Part shown: positions 3,990-45,083 of the stretch, piece by piece
How positions within the stretch are numbered: the first letter of the stretch is position 1
Layout of the letters: the number at the start of each line of letters is the position of its first letter
Origin: Kiritimatiellia bacterium
GTDB lineage: Bacteria; Verrucomicrobiota; Kiritimatiellia; RFP12; UBA1067
Reading direction: 5' to 3'
NCBI GenBank assembly: GCA_017454745.1
Contig: JAFTCL010000007.1
Location: 9,034 to 73,033, forward strand
DNA length: 64,000 nt
Program-made: the position numbers and the translations under genes
The notes under the pieces: generated by a model
What the model was told of the DNA's origin: nothing
The model's database searches: none
The model's input: the letters and a program-made list of their open reading frames with translations, nothing else

Positions 3990-5291
3990 CTATTCCTCCT
4001 GTTGAAAGTGTTCCGGCGCGGCGGTTGCTTGCGCTACTGGCCGGCCGGGATTGTGCATGTTCGTCTCCGTTTCACGGAGCACTGGCGTACCGAAATGGAA
4101 CCCTGTCTGTTCTGACACGGTGCTGACAAGGCGGAAGCCGTCGTTGTTGTTCTCGTTCGACGGGTTATTGTTGTTCCGGTTGGACGAGTTGCAGTTGTCC
4201 GCATTGTTGTTCCAGCTGCCGCCGCGTTTCACCCGGTTCGACCCGGAGGAAGAACCTTCTTTCGACGCCAAATCCTTCAGAATCCCCTTGAAGCCAAACC
4301 AGCGCGACGCACCATCGCTCGACGCTACGCACTGTGCAAAACGCTTTTCATTCAGCATCCCATTTTCAAACTGCCGCACGCGTTGGGCATACGTTCGCCT
4401 TGTTCGTATGAATCGTACCCGCTTAAGCCGCCAGCAGTTCGGCCAAATGCGCAGTCCAAGAAACGGCACACCATCCGACACTGGAGCAACGACTGTCGCG
4501 CCATCCTTGACTTCAAGACCTCTTTCCTCTTCAAGCCACCGTTTCGCCTCGTCATGCAAATGCCACGCCATCGCCTTGGAATCCGCAAAGAACACAAAGT
4601 CATCCATGTAACGAACATAAGGTACTGACGAAGGCGCGGTAAAACCGCGCCTTGCAACTATCGCTCCCATCCCGCAAATCGCAAGATGGTCGAAAGCGTC
4701 AAGGTACGCATTCGCAAACCATTGACTAGTAAGGTTGCCTATCGGCAGCCCGCGCCCTGTCGACAACCCAGGCACGGGGTGCCGCACGATCAGCTCAATC
4801 AAGTTCTTCACGCTTGTCTCGCGGAATTTCGGCAACAACACACCCAGCAACCATTCATGGCCAATGCTGTCGAAATACTTGCGGATGTCCATCTTGCAAA
4901 AGTATTTGGCCTGGCCTGCATACCGCCGCACCAACGCGCATGCCGCATGTGCGCCATATCCTTTACGGCAGGCGAAACTGACGGGAACGAAACTGCGTTC
5001 GATCAACGGTGCAATCACGCCGCAAAGCGCATGATGCACGACCCTGTCGGCCACCGGGGCGCAACTGATCGTTCTTGGTTTGGGATCGAATATCCTGAAC
5101 TGACGATAATCCGACGGCCGATATCTGCCGTTTATCAATTTGTCGCGCAAACAAGCAAGATTAACATCAAGGCAGGCTTCAAATTCTTGTACTGCGACAG
5201 ACGGCGCATGGCCTCGTCTCACGCGTCGCCAAGCCTTGCGAAGATTCTCTTCAGAGACAATCTTCACCCAAATGCCGCCGTAAGATCTCAC
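3990..5291 (-). CDS. DGR-type reverse transcriptase (RT domain about 4260-5291; the uninterrupted ORF continues in frame through the template repeat)
   Basis: RT motifs PRTISCAPVADRVVHHAL, KMDIRKYFDSI and YVRYMDDFVFFA (YxDD box). The start overlaps the upstream HRDC gene by 4 nt. Residues about 346-391 of the ORF are the TR translated in the VR frame (GSSSGSNRVKRGGSWNNNADNCNSSNRNNNNPSNENNNDGFRLV). Confidence 0.85.
   Translation of the reverse strand: MRSYGGIWVKIVSEENLRKAWRRVRRGHAPSVAVQEFEACLDVNLACLRDKLINGRYRPSDYRQFRIFDPKPRTISCAPVADRVVHHALCGVIAPLIERSFVPVSFACRKGYGAHAACALVRRYAGQAKYFCKMDIRKYFDSIGHEWLLGVLLPKFRETSVKNLIELIVRHPVPGLSTGRGLPIGNLTSQWFANAYLDAFDHLAICGMGAIVARRGFTAPSSVPYVRYMDDFVFFADSKAMAWHLHDEAKRWLEEERGLEVKDGATVVAPVSDGVPFLGLRIWPNCWRLKRVRFIRTRRTYAQRVRQFENGMLNEKRFAQCVASSDGASRWFGFKGILKDLASKEGSSSGSNRVKRGGSWNNNADNCNSSNRNNNNPSNENNNDGFRLVSTVSEQTGFHFGTPVLRETETNMHNPGRPVAQATAAPEHFQQEE
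4113..4256 (-). repeat. DGR template repeat (TR), including the IMH*-like 3' end
   Basis: About 134 bp of near-identity to the 3' end of the target gene (5941-6074). Homology is weaker over the terminal about 10 nt (4113-4122 vs 5931-5940). All but one TR/VR difference fall at coding-strand adenines of the TR. The TR is rich in AAC/AAT codons (15 Asn). Confidence 0.85.
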
Positions 5292-5848
5292 GCGATCACC
5301 TCCCCATCGTTTGAAGCGGCTGGACTGCAGTTTTCCGGAGGCTGCGGCCTATCACCTTTGGAAAGCGGCGCATCCGCCGCTTTCATACCTGCGCCGCCCA
5401 TCAGCTCCAACACGCTCTTCCCATACTTAACGCAAAAACCTTCTCCTAAACCTTCAACCTCCTTTATGCCTGACAGCGACTTGGGCATAGCTTTCACTAG
5501 TTCCGCCAATTGAGTGTTTCTCGCTATCGCATACGCCGGCCGGCCTTCGGCTTTCGCCGTTTCGTTTCTCCATGTCTTCAACGCGCGGTAGCAAGTTTTT
5601 TGTGCATCCGTAAGACCATCCTCGGGATTCGGTGCTGTCGCATCTCGTGGACGGTACGAACCCGCGTTCTCGTATTCTGGAGAATCTCCAAGCGACAAAA
5701 CGAGCGACAAATGGGGAACATTGCCATGCACAAAGAAATGTTCAGAGACATTCAACACCTCACGCCCGAATGTGGCAATACGTAGTGCTTCTTCAGGGAA
5801 ACCCTGAAGCGCCTCGTTGTATCGCAATGTGACAACCCGTATCTGCAT
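5288..5848 (-). CDS. DGR accessory protein with C-terminal HRDC-like domain (used in place of Avd)
   Basis: C-terminal segment GRPAYAIARNTQLAELVKAMPKSLSGIKEVEGLGEGFCVKYGKSVLE resembles the HRDC fold. It lies between the target gene and the RT and overlaps the RT start. The N-terminal extent is uncertain. Confidence 0.6.
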   Translation of the reverse strand: MQIRVVTLRYNEALQGFPEEALRIATFGREVLNVSEHFFVHGNVPHLSLVLSLGDSPEYENAGSYRPRDATAPNPEDGLTDAQKTCYRALKTWRNETAKAEGRPAYAIARNTQLAELVKAMPKSLSGIKEVEGLGEGFCVKYGKSVLELMGGAGMKAADAPLSKGDRPQPPENCSPAASNDGEVIA

Positions 5849-5918
5849 GGTTTGTGCCTCGCTGGCTGGTCGGCCCGTGCGCTACCGCGCCGGTCCGCCC
5901 GCCCTTGCGCTCCGCGTA

Positions 5919-8900
5919 TTATTCATTATTTGACAGGGTTCTGACAAGGCGGAAGCCGTCGTTGTTGTACCCGTCCGACGGGTAGCCGCTGCTCCGGTTG
6001 GACGAGCCGCAGTTGTCCGCAATGCTGCGCCAGCTGCCGCCGCGTTCCACCCGGCCCGACCCGGAGGAAGAACCCTTTGGGTCTGTCACTCCGCTTGATA
6101 GACTGCCATACCAATCAAGGCACCATTCCCACACATTGCCACTCATGTCGTACAAGCCCCAAGCGTTAGGATTCTTTGTTCCAACGGGTTGCGTTCCACT
6201 GCTTGAATTACTACCATACCACGCATAGCCGCCGTCCATCGAATCCCCCCAGTAATATACTGTCGTTGCTCCCGCGCGGCAGGCAAATTCCCACTGAGCC
6301 TCGGTGGGAAGGTCGAAATCCAACCCCGTCCGGGCGCGCAGCTTGCCCATGAACGATGAAGAATCCACCGCTGATGATGACGGCCAATCCGAGCCTGCCG
6401 ATGAGCCTCGGATTGAATTGTAGCTAACTTTCTCCACGGGCCGAGTGTCTCCGGAGAAATAGGACGGATTCGATCCCGTCACCAACATATACTGTTTCTG
6501 CGTCACCTCGAACACGCCGCAATAGAACGGTTCCGTCAATGTCACGTCATACGATCCGCGCATCTTGAACGAACCCGGCCCGATGAGACGCAGCACCAGT
6601 TTTGTCGTCTTGTACTCGTCCGACCAACCGCCGGGCGGGATTTCCGCGAGATATGAGACCGGATACGACGATGCGCCGGATCCGGCCGAAAGGTCAATCA
6701 CGCAGTATTTTTCATAATGTTGATACCCAACCGAAAACACCACGGCATCCGAGTTGATTTCCAGTCCCTGCGCATTCAGATCCCAGACAACGTGATGCGA
6801 ACCTTCATCCGTTCCCGTGTCGCCGGAGAGCGCGGAAGCGGCAGCCGCGTATGTCGTGCCGTCCACGCGGTTCGACGCCGTTAACGAAAGGAAGGGCATC
6901 ACCCCTGACGGCAGTCCCGCTGTCACATCACCAACCACGGTGTAAGTGACATCAACCTTCCCGTTCCACGGATACCGCTGTTTAGCCGTGACGTTCCGAA
7001 TCATTACAGTATCCCACTTCGCGTACAGCGTCGCCACCGATGATGACACCGTGTTCGTGGCATACACACGCGTTGTCAGCGACGAATCGGAACACCACCC
7101 TGCGAACGTGAAGCCGCTCTTCACCGGCGTCGGCAGACTGCCGTACGTGCCGCCGACCGTGTACTGCTGCGAACTGCACGAGCTCCCGCCGTTAGAGCTG
7201 AACGAGACCGTAATGTATTCTATCCACCATGCATAAAGCGTTGTCCCACTTGTCTTGTCCCACATCCTTGCACTTGCGCCGGAACCCGTGTAGTACTGTG
7301 TTCCGTATCCATCCGTAGATGTGTAATAGCCCCCGAACGAGTAGCCAGTTCGAGTTGGCGGTGTTATGGACGGCATCGCGCTTCCGTATGTCGCCGTAAC
7401 GCTTGACGTGCCATCGCTTCCGCCATACCGGTCCAGCGCAACATTATAGGTGTTTGCCGTCCATTTCGCGTATAGCGTTGTCCCACATGTCTTGTCCCAC
7501 ATCCTTGCACTTGCGCCGGAACCCGTGTAGTACTGTGTTCCGTATCCATCCGTAGAAGTGTAATAGCCCCCGAACGAGTAGCCAGTTCGAGTTGGCGGTG
7601 TTATGGACGGCATCGCGCTTCCGCATACTGCATACACTGCCTCCGTGCCACCGCTTCCCGACTTCATATTTAACGTCACTTTTGGCGCCCAAGACACTTT
7701 ATCCAAGTAGGCAGACACCAAACCGCTCTGATACGATGAATCTGTGCTTTTACACTCCCATTTAATTTTATGAGTGCCCGCCGAAATCGAGAAAGTTCGC
7801 TGTTCAAAATCAGAAAACATACCGGTAGCATAATTCGGATCCAGAGGATTATCCCCGTCAACAGAAAATTCTAACGAGTCAAAATGTGATTTCCCCGATA
7901 TATACCACCAGAAAGAGAGCCTTCCCGGACCTGTAACTGTTGTCTCAATTTGTCCACACTTGCTAACGCTATACATAGAACAACAGGCAGCGTCCACACC
8001 ATCATAACTTTTAGCCGTTTGAGCGTACCACGGGAAATCCCCACTTGTCGAAAATTCAAGGAATTCATTGTCCAAAGCTTCGGAAAGTGCCAACTGTGGC
8101 ATCTGGGCTGCCTCTTGGGTAAATTTATGGGTTTGAACACTGTTTCCACATGTAAACGTGATTGTAACTTCACGTTCATAAGGTGTCGTATTTGCGGCAA
8201 CTTCATATGAGGCAGTAAAACTTCCTTTGAATGGCGTCACCGGCATTGTAGACCACGACCAAAACGAACCTCCCCAGCCAGACACAGTTTCCTCCTCTGT
8301 CCACGAGGAATCGCACGAGATCTTGATTGTTCCAGTTCCCCCTGAAGCCGGTATCGTTCTCGTTTGCGGCGACACGCTGATTCCTCCATTTCCGGACGAA
8401 GCGGTGATCGTCACAGACTTCGTTATCGACTTGCCACCGTATTCGGCTTTGATTGTCACACTCTGCAACGACGACACACTATTAGCCGTCAGTTTGCCAG
8501 ACGAATTAATGGAAGCATAAGAACTTCCAGAAGTTATCGACCACGAGGGCGAAACCGATTTCGTCGATCCATCGCTCATGGTAGCAGTACATGTGTATGC
8601 GGCGTTGCCGCCGGACGATACGCTGGATGCCCCGGAAATGGCGATGGAAGAAACGGTCAAAGAGGAGGAGGAACCCGCAGCCTGCTTGATGGTGAGGTAA
8701 TCGCCAAAAGTGTTCAGTTTGGCGCGCCACGACCTTTCCGCCCCGGTGTTTTCAAAACAATTCGCGGTGATTACTATCGGCTGGAATCCGTTCCCGCGGT
8801 CAAACAAATAGGCGGAATTGTATTCCGATTCCCCATAAAGCACGGCATTGATATCGTACAGCGCAATACCGTATTTATATTCGTATGCCGTTGTCCCGGC

Positions 8901-9458
8901 GTATGCGCCGGTATCTATCGGTCCCATGGTTTGCCACCCCGCTATCCACACGTGCAAAATCCATGACGCCACTTGATAGGAAAAAGTGCTTCCCCACGCC
9001 CCCGATGTCATTTCGTAAGGGGCGTGAAAAGTCAATGTGGCATTCGAGCCTTGAGCGTCAATTTCAAGCACATACTCCCGCGGGGCGACCGCGGTCTCCG
9101 CATGTGCGGCGATCGGCATCGCCGCGGCAATTACCATTGAAAACAAGGATGCAAAGGCGCATACCGAGTGGATGATGAGCTTTGCGCCCACACCGGCAAA
9201 TGCCTTTGCGCCACGACGCCAATCGCCGCGCACGGTTTTCCCCGATGGGTCTTCACCGCAATCAGCCATAGTTCCAGACGGTAAAAAAGCAGCCTCCTCC
9301 GCAATCGCGATATTACTGCGTCCTTCTGTCATGTGCTTTATGAATTGTCCATTCATTAGATTTCCCTTCCTTAACCAAATTCCAAGACCAGGCATGAGCA
9401 GATTTGCCAGCATGTCCGTGCCGCTATCCGCTTGCCGCAACTTCAGAAAAGCCTTCAA
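5919..9458 (-). CDS. DGR target protein: large secreted multi-domain protein with Big_2, tandem Listeria-Bacteroides (Flg_new) repeats and a C-terminal FGE-sulfatase/C-type-lectin-fold domain carrying the VR
   Basis: C-terminal ...FACRAGATTVYYWGDSMDGGYAWYGSNS...GNVWEWCLDWYGS...GSSSGSGRVERGGSWRSIADNCGSSNRSSGYPSDGYNNDGFRLV is a formylglycine-generating-enzyme-like lectin fold. A signal-peptide-like stretch (AKLIIHSVCAFASLFSMVIAAAMPIAAHA) sits about 65-95 aa into the ORF, so the true start may be internal (for example near 9269). Confidence 0.8.
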   Translation of the reverse strand: MKAFLKLRQADSGTDMLANLLMPGLGIWLRKGNLMNGQFIKHMTEGRSNIAIAEEAAFLPSGTMADCGEDPSGKTVRGDWRRGAKAFAGVGAKLIIHSVCAFASLFSMVIAAAMPIAAHAETAVAPREYVLEIDAQGSNATLTFHAPYEMTSGAWGSTFSYQVASWILHVWIAGWQTMGPIDTGAYAGTTAYEYKYGIALYDINAVLYGESEYNSAYLFDRGNGFQPIVITANCFENTGAERSWRAKLNTFGDYLTIKQAAGSSSSLTVSSIAISGASSVSSGGNAAYTCTATMSDGSTKSVSPSWSITSGSSYASINSSGKLTANSVSSLQSVTIKAEYGGKSITKSVTITASSGNGGISVSPQTRTIPASGGTGTIKISCDSSWTEEETVSGWGGSFWSWSTMPVTPFKGSFTASYEVAANTTPYEREVTITFTCGNSVQTHKFTQEAAQMPQLALSEALDNEFLEFSTSGDFPWYAQTAKSYDGVDAACCSMYSVSKCGQIETTVTGPGRLSFWWYISGKSHFDSLEFSVDGDNPLDPNYATGMFSDFEQRTFSISAGTHKIKWECKSTDSSYQSGLVSAYLDKVSWAPKVTLNMKSGSGGTEAVYAVCGSAMPSITPPTRTGYSFGGYYTSTDGYGTQYYTGSGASARMWDKTCGTTLYAKWTANTYNVALDRYGGSDGTSSVTATYGSAMPSITPPTRTGYSFGGYYTSTDGYGTQYYTGSGASARMWDKTSGTTLYAWWIEYITVSFSSNGGSSCSSQQYTVGGTYGSLPTPVKSGFTFAGWCSDSSLTTRVYATNTVSSSVATLYAKWDTVMIRNVTAKQRYPWNGKVDVTYTVVGDVTAGLPSGVMPFLSLTASNRVDGTTYAAAASALSGDTGTDEGSHHVVWDLNAQGLEINSDAVVFSVGYQHYEKYCVIDLSAGSGASSYPVSYLAEIPPGGWSDEYKTTKLVLRLIGPGSFKMRGSYDVTLTEPFYCGVFEVTQKQYMLVTGSNPSYFSGDTRPVEKVSYNSIRGSSAGSDWPSSSAVDSSSFMGKLRARTGLDFDLPTEAQWEFACRAGATTVYYWGDSMDGGYAWYGSNSSSGTQPVGTKNPNAWGLYDMSGNVWEWCLDWYGSLSSGVTDPKGSSSGSGRVERGGSWRSIADNCGSSNRSSGYPSDGYNNDGFRLVRTLSNNE
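5931..6074 (-). repeat. DGR variable repeat (VR) at the 3' end of the target gene, including the putative IMH end
   Basis: Pairs with TR 4113-4256. 11 of 15 TR Asn codons are altered in the VR (N to G/R/S/I/G/S/S/G/Y/D/Y), plus K to E and E to G, all by A-to-N changes. Confidence 0.85.
7244..7630. repeat. Intragenic tandem duplication (about 239-bp period, roughly 1.6 copies) encoding the Flg_new-type repeats of the DGR target
   Basis: Near-identical DNA at 7244-7390 and 7483-7630. These encode ...SAMPSITPPTRTGYSFGGYYTSTDGYGTQYYTGSGASARMWDKT.GTTLYA.W twice. Confidence 0.8.
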
Positions 9459-43842: not shown

Positions 43843-44730
43843 TCAGCATTCCAAAACATCGCATCCCGTGAAACCGTAATCGCGCGTCAACCGGTTGACC
43901 ACCGCATCTAGAAAACTCTCCGGCGTCGATGCCCCGCTGGTAATGCCGAGCCACTCGGAGTCAAGCAGCGGCGAACCGTCCAAATCCGACATCTCGCTCA
44001 CCAAAGCAGCGTTTGCGCCTGCCGATTGGGCGGTTTCCACCAAGCGACGGCTGTTGGATGAATTGGCGGCGCCCAGCACCAAAACATTGCCGCATACCTC
44101 AGCCAAACGCCGTACTGCCCGCTGGCGGTTACGGGTGGCGTAACAGATTTCGGTTCCGCCGGGAACGCGCAATGCCGGATAACGCCGACGTAACGCGTCG
44201 ATCAAACGATCAACCTTCTCGGCGGATAGCGTGGTCTGGGTCACCACCGCCGTCCCGGAACCATCCGGCACCGAAACCGACCGCACGTCGTTTTCGTCCT
44301 CCACCACCCGGACAAAATCCGGGGCTTCACCCGCCACCCCCACCACCTCATCATGTCCGTGATGGCCAATGCAGAAAACATACACGCCCTTGGAGGCGAA
44401 CTCCCTAACCGTAGCGTGAACTTTAGCCACAAAAGGACAAGTGGCGTCCACCACCCTCAGATTTCGGGCTTCAGCGGCCTTCCGCACCGCCGGGGCGACG
44501 CCATGCGCGGAAAACAGCAGCACCGATCCCGGCGGCACGTCATCAACCTGTTGGACGAAAACCATACCCGCCGCGGTTAGCTCGGACACCACTTGCCCGT
44601 TGTGAACTATCTCGTGCAGACAGTAAACTTTCTCGCCCTGATGGTCGGACAGCACCTTCCGGGCGGTAGCCACCGCCCGGGCGACACCGGAACAGAAACC
44701 GTGGGGATTCGCGACCGTAAGACGCTTCAC
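43843..44730 (-). CDS. ispH: 4-hydroxy-3-methylbut-2-enyl diphosphate reductase
   Basis: NPHGFCSGVARAV and YCLHEIVHN motifs with three conserved Cys regions. Confidence 0.9.
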   Translation of the reverse strand: MKRLTVANPHGFCSGVARAVATARKVLSDHQGEKVYCLHEIVHNGQVVSELTAAGMVFVQQVDDVPPGSVLLFSAHGVAPAVRKAAEARNLRVVDATCPFVAKVHATVREFASKGVYVFCIGHHGHDEVVGVAGEAPDFVRVVEDENDVRSVSVPDGSGTAVVTQTTLSAEKVDRLIDALRRRYPALRVPGGTEICYATRNRQRAVRRLAEVCGNVLVLGAANSSNSRRLVETAQSAGANAALVSEMSDLDGSPLLDSEWLGITSGASTPESFLDAVVNRLTRDYGFTGCDVLEC

Positions 44731-45083
44731 GGCAAATCCTTTCCGTCAAAAAGTTCCATCAGTTCATCCGGATCATATTCCGGAAGCGCCCCCTGCTCCT
44801 CAAGTTCGGCCAGCGCGATCTCCGCTGGGGTTAGAAAACTTTTGGTTTTGTTGCACTGTTCACAGGCGGGAACAACGTTCGATCTCACGCTTCTCCCGCC
44901 GCGGGCGACGGGGATAACATGATCCATCGTCAAATTTTCCGCCCCCACCTGTCGCCCGCAATAATGGCAAACCCCGCGCGCCAGTTGCTCTCGCCACCAG
45001 TCGCTTTGGCGCAACTCTTTGGCTTTGGCGCGTTCCCGCGCCACATGGCCGGGATCTTTTTGAATGTCAACCCAATTGTCCAC
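44727..45083 (-). CDS. HNH endonuclease family protein
   Basis: HVIPVARGG...NVVPACEQCNKTK HNH motif. 118 aa. Overlaps the ispH start by 4 nt. Confidence 0.75.
   Translation of the reverse strand: MDNWVDIQKDPGHVARERAKAKELRQSDWWREQLARGVCHYCGRQVGAENLTMDHVIPVARGGRSVRSNVVPACEQCNKTKSFLTPAEIALAELEEQGALPEYDPDELMELFDGKDLP

Follow-up and report, generated by a model that had tools for sequence, protein, structure and literature searches.

The DNA analyzed here is a stretch of 64,000 nucleotides (the window) from contig JAFTCL010000007.1 of a Kiritimatiellia bacterium, and our subject is a small accessory gene within its diversity-generating retroelement (DGR). The cassette lies on the minus strand in the order target gene with variable repeat (VR), hairpin, HRDC gene, reverse transcriptase (RT) gene, and template repeat (TR). 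The target gene (5919..9458) encodes a C-type lectin (CLec)/FGE-sulfatase protein, and the VR (5931..6074) occupies its last ~50 codons. A GC-rich, imperfect hairpin or cruciform element with a GGTA tetraloop (5864..5903) separates the target stop codon from the ATG of the accessory gene. The accessory gene (5288..5848) is an ATG-initiated open reading frame (ORF) of 186 aa, and it is followed by the 433-aa RT ORF (3990..5291). The TR (4113..4256), adenine-rich and marked by AAC codons, falls within the RT ORF, toward its 3′ end, and shares the frame of the VR. An earlier note on this DNA, made from the letters alone, had described a 186-aa gene between a target and an RT, and the gene is indeed an exact ORF between those two neighbors.

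The TR and VR share a 144-nt direct repeat with 86% identity. The 134-nt core of this repeat holds 18 differences, 17 of them at TR adenines and all at codon position 1 or 2; the lone non-adenine difference is a synonymous third-position T>C. The RT ORF matches RVT_1 in Pfam (E 1e-17) and carries the IGNLTSQ and YMDD motifs. Its RT domain comprises aa 1 to ~340 (nt 4272–5291), and the phage RT family phrog_1423 is matched over aa 1–341 (E 2e-94). With adenine-specific TR/VR differences, a DGR-type RT, and a CLec target, the element around the accessory gene is a genuine DGR. The accessory gene and the RT gene overlap by 4 nt, GTGA, which hold the stop codon of the former and the start codon of the latter.

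The product of the accessory gene is an HRDC protein. In a Pfam scan at E ≤ 1 its sole match is HRDC (PF00570), at E 5e-17 with a score of 62 bits, where the gathering cutoff is 23.8, and the matched residues 83–149 (5402..5602, minus strand) span profile positions 1–67 of 68. From NCBIfam, the protein matches only the C-terminal ~70 positions of TIGR01389 (recQ; 40 bits vs. a cutoff of 640) and TIGR01388 (rnd; 22 bits vs. a cutoff of 299). A phmmer search of PDB sequences returned the HRDC domain of Deinococcus radiodurans RecQ (2rhf, 6e-5), while PHROGs gave no match for the accessory protein. An AlphaFold model built on 36 homologs shows a five-helix HRDC domain with a predicted local distance difference test (pLDDT) score of 94–97 across aa 81–150. 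In Foldseek this model superimposes on the HRDC domain of Escherichia coli RecQ (1wud_A) with a template modeling (TM) score of 0.89 and a root-mean-square deviation (rmsd) of 1.1 Å, and on HRDC3 of D. radiodurans RecQ (2rhf) with TM 0.85; overall, matches to 1wud and 2rhf fall at TM 0.85–0.90 and rmsd ~1 Å. The peptide GRPAYAIARNTQ...LELMGG corresponds to residues 102–152 of the accessory protein. The HRDC resemblance claimed in the earlier note is thus borne out at the level of profile, sequence, and fold, well beyond chance, and the two checks that it had proposed, a profile search of the product against HRDC (PF00570) and the Avd families and a structure prediction, returned HRDC only and the five-helix HRDC fold, respectively. 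Its further statement that the gene ends with this segment needs amending: the HRDC domain is followed by a 36-residue acidic tail modeled with low confidence.

Nucleic-acid binding by the HRDC domain is predicted, the indication being its charge: the isoelectric point (pI) is 9.5 for the domain alone (basic) and 5.7 for the whole accessory protein (acidic). HRDC domains of RecQ-family helicases bind single-stranded DNA (ssDNA), forks, and four-way junctions, and those of RNase D and Rrp6 act on RNA.

The best named sequence matches of the protein are the C-termini of RecQ and RNase D, and some of its homologs have been auto-annotated by JGI as “superfamily II DNA helicase RecQ.” Both facts would suit a stray C-terminal fragment of a host RecQ or RNase D that sits within the cassette and has no role in diversification. 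The protein is, however, a 186-aa product with no helicase or nuclease domain: no catalytic core of RecQ helicase (SF2 helicase plus RQC) or of RNase D (DEDD 3′–5′ exonuclease) is present in it. It also has an N-terminal domain of its own, which is conserved and found almost only together with HRDC. The position, orientation, and 4-nt RT overlap of the gene are kept across more than 30 loci of different phyla, and the protein sequence shows good conservation (30 columns are invariant in the 36 homologs). The fragment reading, largely refuted by this synteny, is in our judgment very improbable.

The protein is not Avd, as the earlier note had also maintained. Neither PF05635 nor PF22296 (bAvd) matches the accessory protein, its cassette neighbors, or any of the scanned small ORFs of the window (75–225 aa, taken from a greedy gene set of the 64 kb). 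This negative result is meaningful because the same Pfam library detects bAvd in a related locus, L047. The Avd-type fold and strong basicity are likewise missing from the accessory protein, which is built of a β-α-β-β unit plus five helices rather than a four-helix bundle and has a pI of 5.7. An Avd identity was consequently rejected on all three grounds (no profile match, no four-helix bundle, not basic). Published values agree with this separation: Avd proteins are basic (pI about 9.5), and HRDC accessory proteins are not (6.9 ± 1.3; PMC5758913). In L047, a distant family member (5001–6836), a bAvd gene (PF22296) comes after the accessory gene, and a 337-aa ORF after that. This arrangement agrees with the published observation that avd is present as well in about half of the catalogued HRDC-DGRs (Wu et al. 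2018, PMC5758913), and the co-occurrence of HRDC and Avd suggests that the two are probably not interchangeable.

The residues preceding the HRDC domain were examined as well. The earlier note had found no obvious similarity in the first ~90 residues, which stands as far as known families are concerned. These residues are nevertheless not featureless, since aa 1–55 are conserved and confidently folded (pLDDT >95). This N-terminal domain (5684..5848, minus strand; pLDDT 93–98) is the best conserved part of the accessory protein among the 36 homologs, with Y10, G16, F17, E19, G28, H37, F38, F39, P45, H46, and D55 invariant, and AlphaFold folds it as strand-helix-strand-strand. Pfam at E ≤ 10 returned nothing for it, nor did a 46-sequence profile searched against PDB sequences at E ≤ 10. 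A Foldseek search of the PDB with the pLDDT-95 model of the domain gave archease (4n2p) as best match at E 0.07, along with weak Alba, ACT, and NikR-like matches, none of them significant. Against BFVD the best E was 0.03, to unnamed phage proteins, again without significance. Because the Pfam, PDB-profile, and both Foldseek searches failed, no fold family is assigned to the domain.

The distribution of the N-terminal domain is narrow. An exhaustive phmmer search of residues 1–60 against 1.84 billion representatives found only 178 clusters, in which the domain is nearly always at the N-terminus of proteins of 150–220 aa. HRDC is present in 26 of 32 longer distant matches (~30–40% identity). 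By these sequence matches, the N-terminal domain occurs almost only fused to HRDC. A profile search with the domain returned short fragments only. In one protein (P0189, 303 aa) the N-terminal domain is joined straight to an RT domain, without HRDC between them. This fusion could be a deletion derivative or an assembly artifact; a real fusion would hint that the N-terminal domain and the RT are functionally linked.

The accessory protein has a fixed two-domain architecture, in which the N-terminal domain is joined by a linker modeled with low confidence (aa 56–82; 5603..5683, minus strand) to the HRDC domain, and the HRDC domain to a variable acidic tail (aa 150–186). The segment encoding this tail and the stop codon lies at 5288..5401 on the minus strand; the tail has a pI of 4.4 and a pLDDT of 42–55, and it shows no conservation. 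The homologs all begin MQ/D-[IV]-R-V, which supports the ATG at 5848 as the start codon. An NCBI entry for the identical protein from a Kiritimatiellae metagenome-assembled genome (MAG) (P0001) begins only at codon 8, where Leu is read as Met. Because alignment and model both place window positions 5828–5848 (MQIRVVT) in the conserved first β-strand, the ATG at 5848 is a better start than that of NCBI.

A search of 5.8 billion proteins with the accessory protein yielded 181 homologs. The best of them is identical over residues 8–186, is named “HRDC domain-containing protein” by NCBI, and comes from a Kiritimatiellae MAG. The relatives, drawn from GTDB genomes and metagenome contigs, are mostly members of the Planctomycetes-Verrucomicrobia-Chlamydiae (PVC) group (Kiritimatiellae, Lentisphaerae/Victivallales, Planctomycetota, and an Akkermansia MAG) and include the cultured Oligosphaera ethanolica DSM 24202; a few derive from other bins. 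No relatives were found among IMG/VR viral contigs. In every homologous locus with a long enough contig, the order CLec target > accessory gene > RT is kept on one strand; this order covers more than 30 loci at 45–75% identity. The 4-nt overlap between accessory stop and RT start is found in 20 of 24 loci, and the TR directly follows the RT domain in the homologous loci. Adenine-specific TR/VR differences mark 16 of 18 related loci; in O. ethanolica, for instance, 21 of 22 differences are of this kind. Given this pattern, the Avd-less HRDC cassettes look active. The target type varies in the distant family member L046 (958–4700), where a Peptidase_C14 (caspase)-FGE-sulfatase target is followed by the accessory gene and the RT.

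Taken together, these findings make the accessory protein an integral, co-expressed component of an Avd-less DGR. We are nearly certain of its identity as the accessory protein of an Avd-less HRDC-type DGR, composed of a family-specific N-terminal domain and a basic HRDC domain together with a linker and an acidic disordered tail.

The reading frame of the RT gene continues past the RT domain and through the TR (3990–4272), in the VR frame. This extension would add a tail of ~90 aa that is rich in Asn and mimics the C-terminus of the target. In-frame read-through of the TR is found in 15 of 23 homologous loci, and in the other 8 the RT (328–350 aa) stops just before the TR.

The hairpin between target and accessory gene (5864–5903) has its GGTA tetraloop at 5883–5886, 15 nested pairs, and a folding energy of –18.7 kcal/mol as DNA, and it lies ~27 nt beyond the end of VR homology. 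Of 33 distinct homologous intergenic regions, 29 contain a GC-GGYA-GC loop motif. All 26 regions tested fold with the loop closed and with 7–19 nested pairs, while their lower stems are unrelated in sequence. In an ungapped alignment, the upper-stem pair second from the invariant closing pairs reads CG in 15 regions and GC in 11; no region breaks it. The hairpin thus covaries, its structure being kept while the stem sequence is free. In BPP-1, the target hairpin has GC-rich stems and a 4-nt GRNA loop, lies 4–34 bp after the VR, and is required for target recognition through its structure rather than its sequence (Guo et al. 2011, PMC3240598). The hairpin in the window fits such a DGR target-recognition hairpin or cruciform. 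An intrinsic terminator was rejected as an alternative, since no T-run follows the window hairpin and both loop and position fit the DGR target element.

A second hairpin of 9–10 bp, GCAGGGGGC-GGCA-GCCCCCTGC, preceded by TTGCGGGGG, is found downstream of the GGYA hairpin in many related loci (L015, L017, L018, L020, L021, L022, and L026–L029). Its sequence is near-identical among them, and it is absent from the window.

Orphan CLec target genes are also found, namely at L035, L039, L040, L041, L042, L043, L044, and L045 (match starts 6001, 1276 or 1573). All but L045 have the GGYA-loop hairpin, followed by a truncated remnant of the 5′ end of the accessory gene and no RT. Homology to the accessory gene ends near codon 27–40 in five of these loci and near codon 65–90 in the others, so that the breakpoints are clustered. 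One MAG contains both an orphan (L039) and a complete cassette (L009). These loci suggest that targets were duplicated along with ~100–300 nt of 3′ flank.

The proximity of a conserved structured element to the accessory start codon, immediately upstream of it, raises the question of whether the protein, small and predicted to bind nucleic acid, could instead be a regulator of the cassette that controls expression of RT or target, for example by binding either its own mRNA or the hairpin as operator, rather than taking part in retrohoming. The features of the hairpin argue otherwise, since its GRNA tetraloop, GC-rich stem, and post-VR position are those of DGR target recognition. Furthermore, the hairpin is kept at orphan targets that have no intact accessory gene and no RT, which fits a cis-acting part of the target better than an operator for the accessory-RT operon. 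HRDC domains are also not known to act as transcription factors, which counts against regulation as well. We regard regulation of the cassette as improbable.

What the accessory protein does can be addressed more tentatively. The overlap of the accessory stop with the RT start (GTGA) suggests that the protein would be made together with the RT by translational coupling. It may then serve as a nucleic-acid-binding subunit of the retrohoming machinery, in which the N-terminal domain could dock to the RT or mediate self-association and the basic face of the HRDC domain could hold single-stranded or branched nucleic acid. Its place may be at the target or the cDNA-integration step, where it would recognize or stabilize the GGYA hairpin or cruciform beside the VR, or the junction of cDNA and target. 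Such a role is favored over cDNA priming of the Avd type because HRDC co-occurs with avd and because the HRDC domains of RecQ bind ssDNA, forks, and junctions. The covarying GGYA hairpin directly upstream of the gene would provide an available ligand of structured DNA. For this mechanism as a whole, an RT-coupled nucleic-acid-binding subunit acting at the target or cDNA-integration step, our confidence falls just short of even; identity and mechanism taken together form our best explanation, which we consider about as probable as its negation.

The main competing possibility is that the HRDC protein substitutes for Avd by binding the RT and the TR-containing RNA and so enabling template-primed, adenine-mutagenic cDNA synthesis. 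From work of Handa and colleagues in 2018, the Avd pentamer reportedly plays that part for the Bordetella phage RT. In favor of this possibility, Avd is missing from both the cassette and the 64-kb window, yet adenine-specific TR/VR differences are present here and in the 16 of 18 related loci. The gene lies directly upstream of the RT, with apparent translational coupling in the 20 of 24 loci, and the HRDC domains of RNase D and Rrp6, seen among the fold matches, have RNA substrates. On the other hand, the co-occurrence of HRDC and Avd, both in L047 and in about half of the catalogued HRDC-DGRs (PMC5758913), argues for distinct roles of the two. The protein is acidic overall (pI 5.7), unlike the basic Avd. 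An accessory gene is missing altogether from approximately 29% of DGRs (PMC5758913), which indicates that Avd-like help is not universally required. Substitution for Avd is therefore a possibility to be taken seriously, with the chances somewhat against it.

Several considerations weigh against the favored mechanism at the target or cDNA-integration step. With no Avd in cassette or window, either another factor covers the role of Avd or the RT needs none, which leaves room for an Avd substitute. Because RNA is the substrate of the HRDC domains in RNase D and Rrp6, TR-RNA is an equally plausible ligand. That the hairpin lies close to the gene does not show that the protein binds it. Docking of the N-terminal domain to the RT is suggested solely by the gene overlap and by the possibly artifactual P0189 fusion. 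The predicted TM score (pTM) of the model is 0.49, meaning that the N-terminal and HRDC domains have no fixed mutual orientation. Finally, the earlier note had called the HRDC type mechanistically uncharacterized, and we too found no experimental study of HRDC-type DGRs in the searchable literature, so that the mechanistic steps are all inferred.

A bolder version of the RT-coupled subunit would make the N-terminal domain, an undescribed module, and the HRDC domain a self-sufficient, Avd-independent factor, with the former docking to the RT and the latter reading the GGYA cruciform. We consider this unlikely. If true, the protein would physically couple cDNA synthesis to the target site, and the compact three-part cassette (target, HRDC, RT/TR) would represent a distinct mechanistic type of mutagenic retrohoming.

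The remaining features of the locus concern the target gene and the surroundings of the cassette. The target ORF, whose true start may be further downstream than the ORF start at 9458, encodes 1179 aa with an FGE-sulfatase domain at aa 971–1173 (E 1e-33), three Flg_new matches, and BACON, all from Pfam. The product, of the surface type, carries BACON and Listeria-Bacteroides repeats, and the VR lies in its C-terminal FGE-sulfatase/C-type-lectin domain. Two near-identical tandem segments of ~240 nt at ~7230–7600, in which TPPTRTGYSFGGYYTSTDGYGTQYYTGSGASARMWDKT... is present twice, correspond to the Listeria-Bacteroides repeats and are a recent internal duplication. A search across the 64-kb window for a second VR or target found none. 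The genes in the flanks of the window include an ABC transporter and a surface glycan-binding protein. A phage-borne origin of the cassette was rejected on the grounds that IMG/VR viral contigs contain no relatives and that the flanks are ordinary chromosomal genes. Amid such chromosomal genes, a small stand-alone ORF at 44727–45083 (minus strand, 118 aa) encodes an HNH endonuclease (Pfam HNH, E 1e-13).

HRDC-type DGRs have been catalogued, while mechanistic knowledge of DGRs comes entirely from Avd-containing systems. The family described here is a coherent lineage of more than 30 loci, mostly from the PVC group, in which the HRDC protein is the only accessory factor. A sole HRDC accessory gene, its coupling to the RT, a conserved hairpin, and adenine-specific differences together make this lineage a clean natural case of Avd-independent diversification. 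The presence of the cultured O. ethanolica DSM 24202 in the family offers a practical start for asking what HRDC does in retrohoming. The main value of the locus is as a pointer to a model for an unstudied type of DGR that is compact, free of Avd, and in part culturable.

Among known systems, the cassette in the window is most readily compared with the DGRs that carry HRDC accessory genes. Early DGR papers, over a decade ago, already named HRDC as an alternative to the usual accessory gene, and later reviews and a guilt-by-association study list HRDC accessory genes again. The earlier note had described HRDC as the rarer DGR configuration, in line with the 14 of 372 DGRs (4%) of a curated set that have HRDC accessory genes; such genes define “Architecture C” (Wu et al. 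2018, NAR 46:11, PMC5758913), which is typified by the DGR of Treponema denticola (Nimkulrat et al. 2016, PMC4891356). The window contains just such an arrangement, a stand-alone HRDC gene inside a bona fide DGR, beside RT, TR, and target. As in Architecture C, the HRDC protein is small (~160–190 aa) and stands alone, its gene is directly upstream of the RT gene and overlaps it, the protein is not basic (5.7 in the window vs. 6.9 ± 1.3), and the target is of the C-type-lectin/FGE-sulfatase kind. The layouts differ in detail. In T. denticola the accessory gene lies between TR and RT, with a 47-nt overlap, whereas the window has VR-hairpin-HRDC-RT-TR, an overlap of 4 nt, and a TR contained in the 3′ end of the RT ORF. 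Host groups differ too, being PVC bacteria (Kiritimatiellae, Lentisphaerae, Planctomycetota) for the window family and spirochaetes for the Treponema type. The locus is a clean example of the already catalogued Architecture C and does not represent a system of a new kind; what is described here of the N-terminal domain and of the PVC-wide lineage appears to be new detail that leaves the kind unchanged.

The HRDC domain itself shares its fold and Pfam family with those of RecQ-family helicases (1wud, 2rhf, BLM, WRN) and of RNase D/Rrp6, where it likewise serves as an auxiliary nucleic-acid-binding module, a function predicted for the window protein. It differs from them in three respects: it lacks a catalytic core, it is fused to a novel N-terminal domain, and it is dedicated to a retroelement cassette. 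Avd of BPP-1 (PF05635; bAvd, PF22296) resembles the window protein in being a small accessory protein encoded beside the DGR RT, a presumed nucleic-acid binder presumed to be needed for mutagenic retrohoming. There is no sequence or fold relationship between the two: Avd is a basic pentamer of four-helix bundles, whereas the window protein is acidic overall and consists of an α/β domain plus a five-helix HRDC domain. The hairpin, finally, is like the element of Guo et al. 2011 in being a GC-rich inverted repeat with a GRNA-type loop (GGTA here), tens of nt past the VR. In the window family, however, the stem is longer and two-tiered, with an upper part of 3–7 bp, an internal loop, and a lower part of 6–10 bp, for a total of 13–19 bp in most loci, and the loop is narrower (GGYA) and closed by an invariant G-C/C-G pair.

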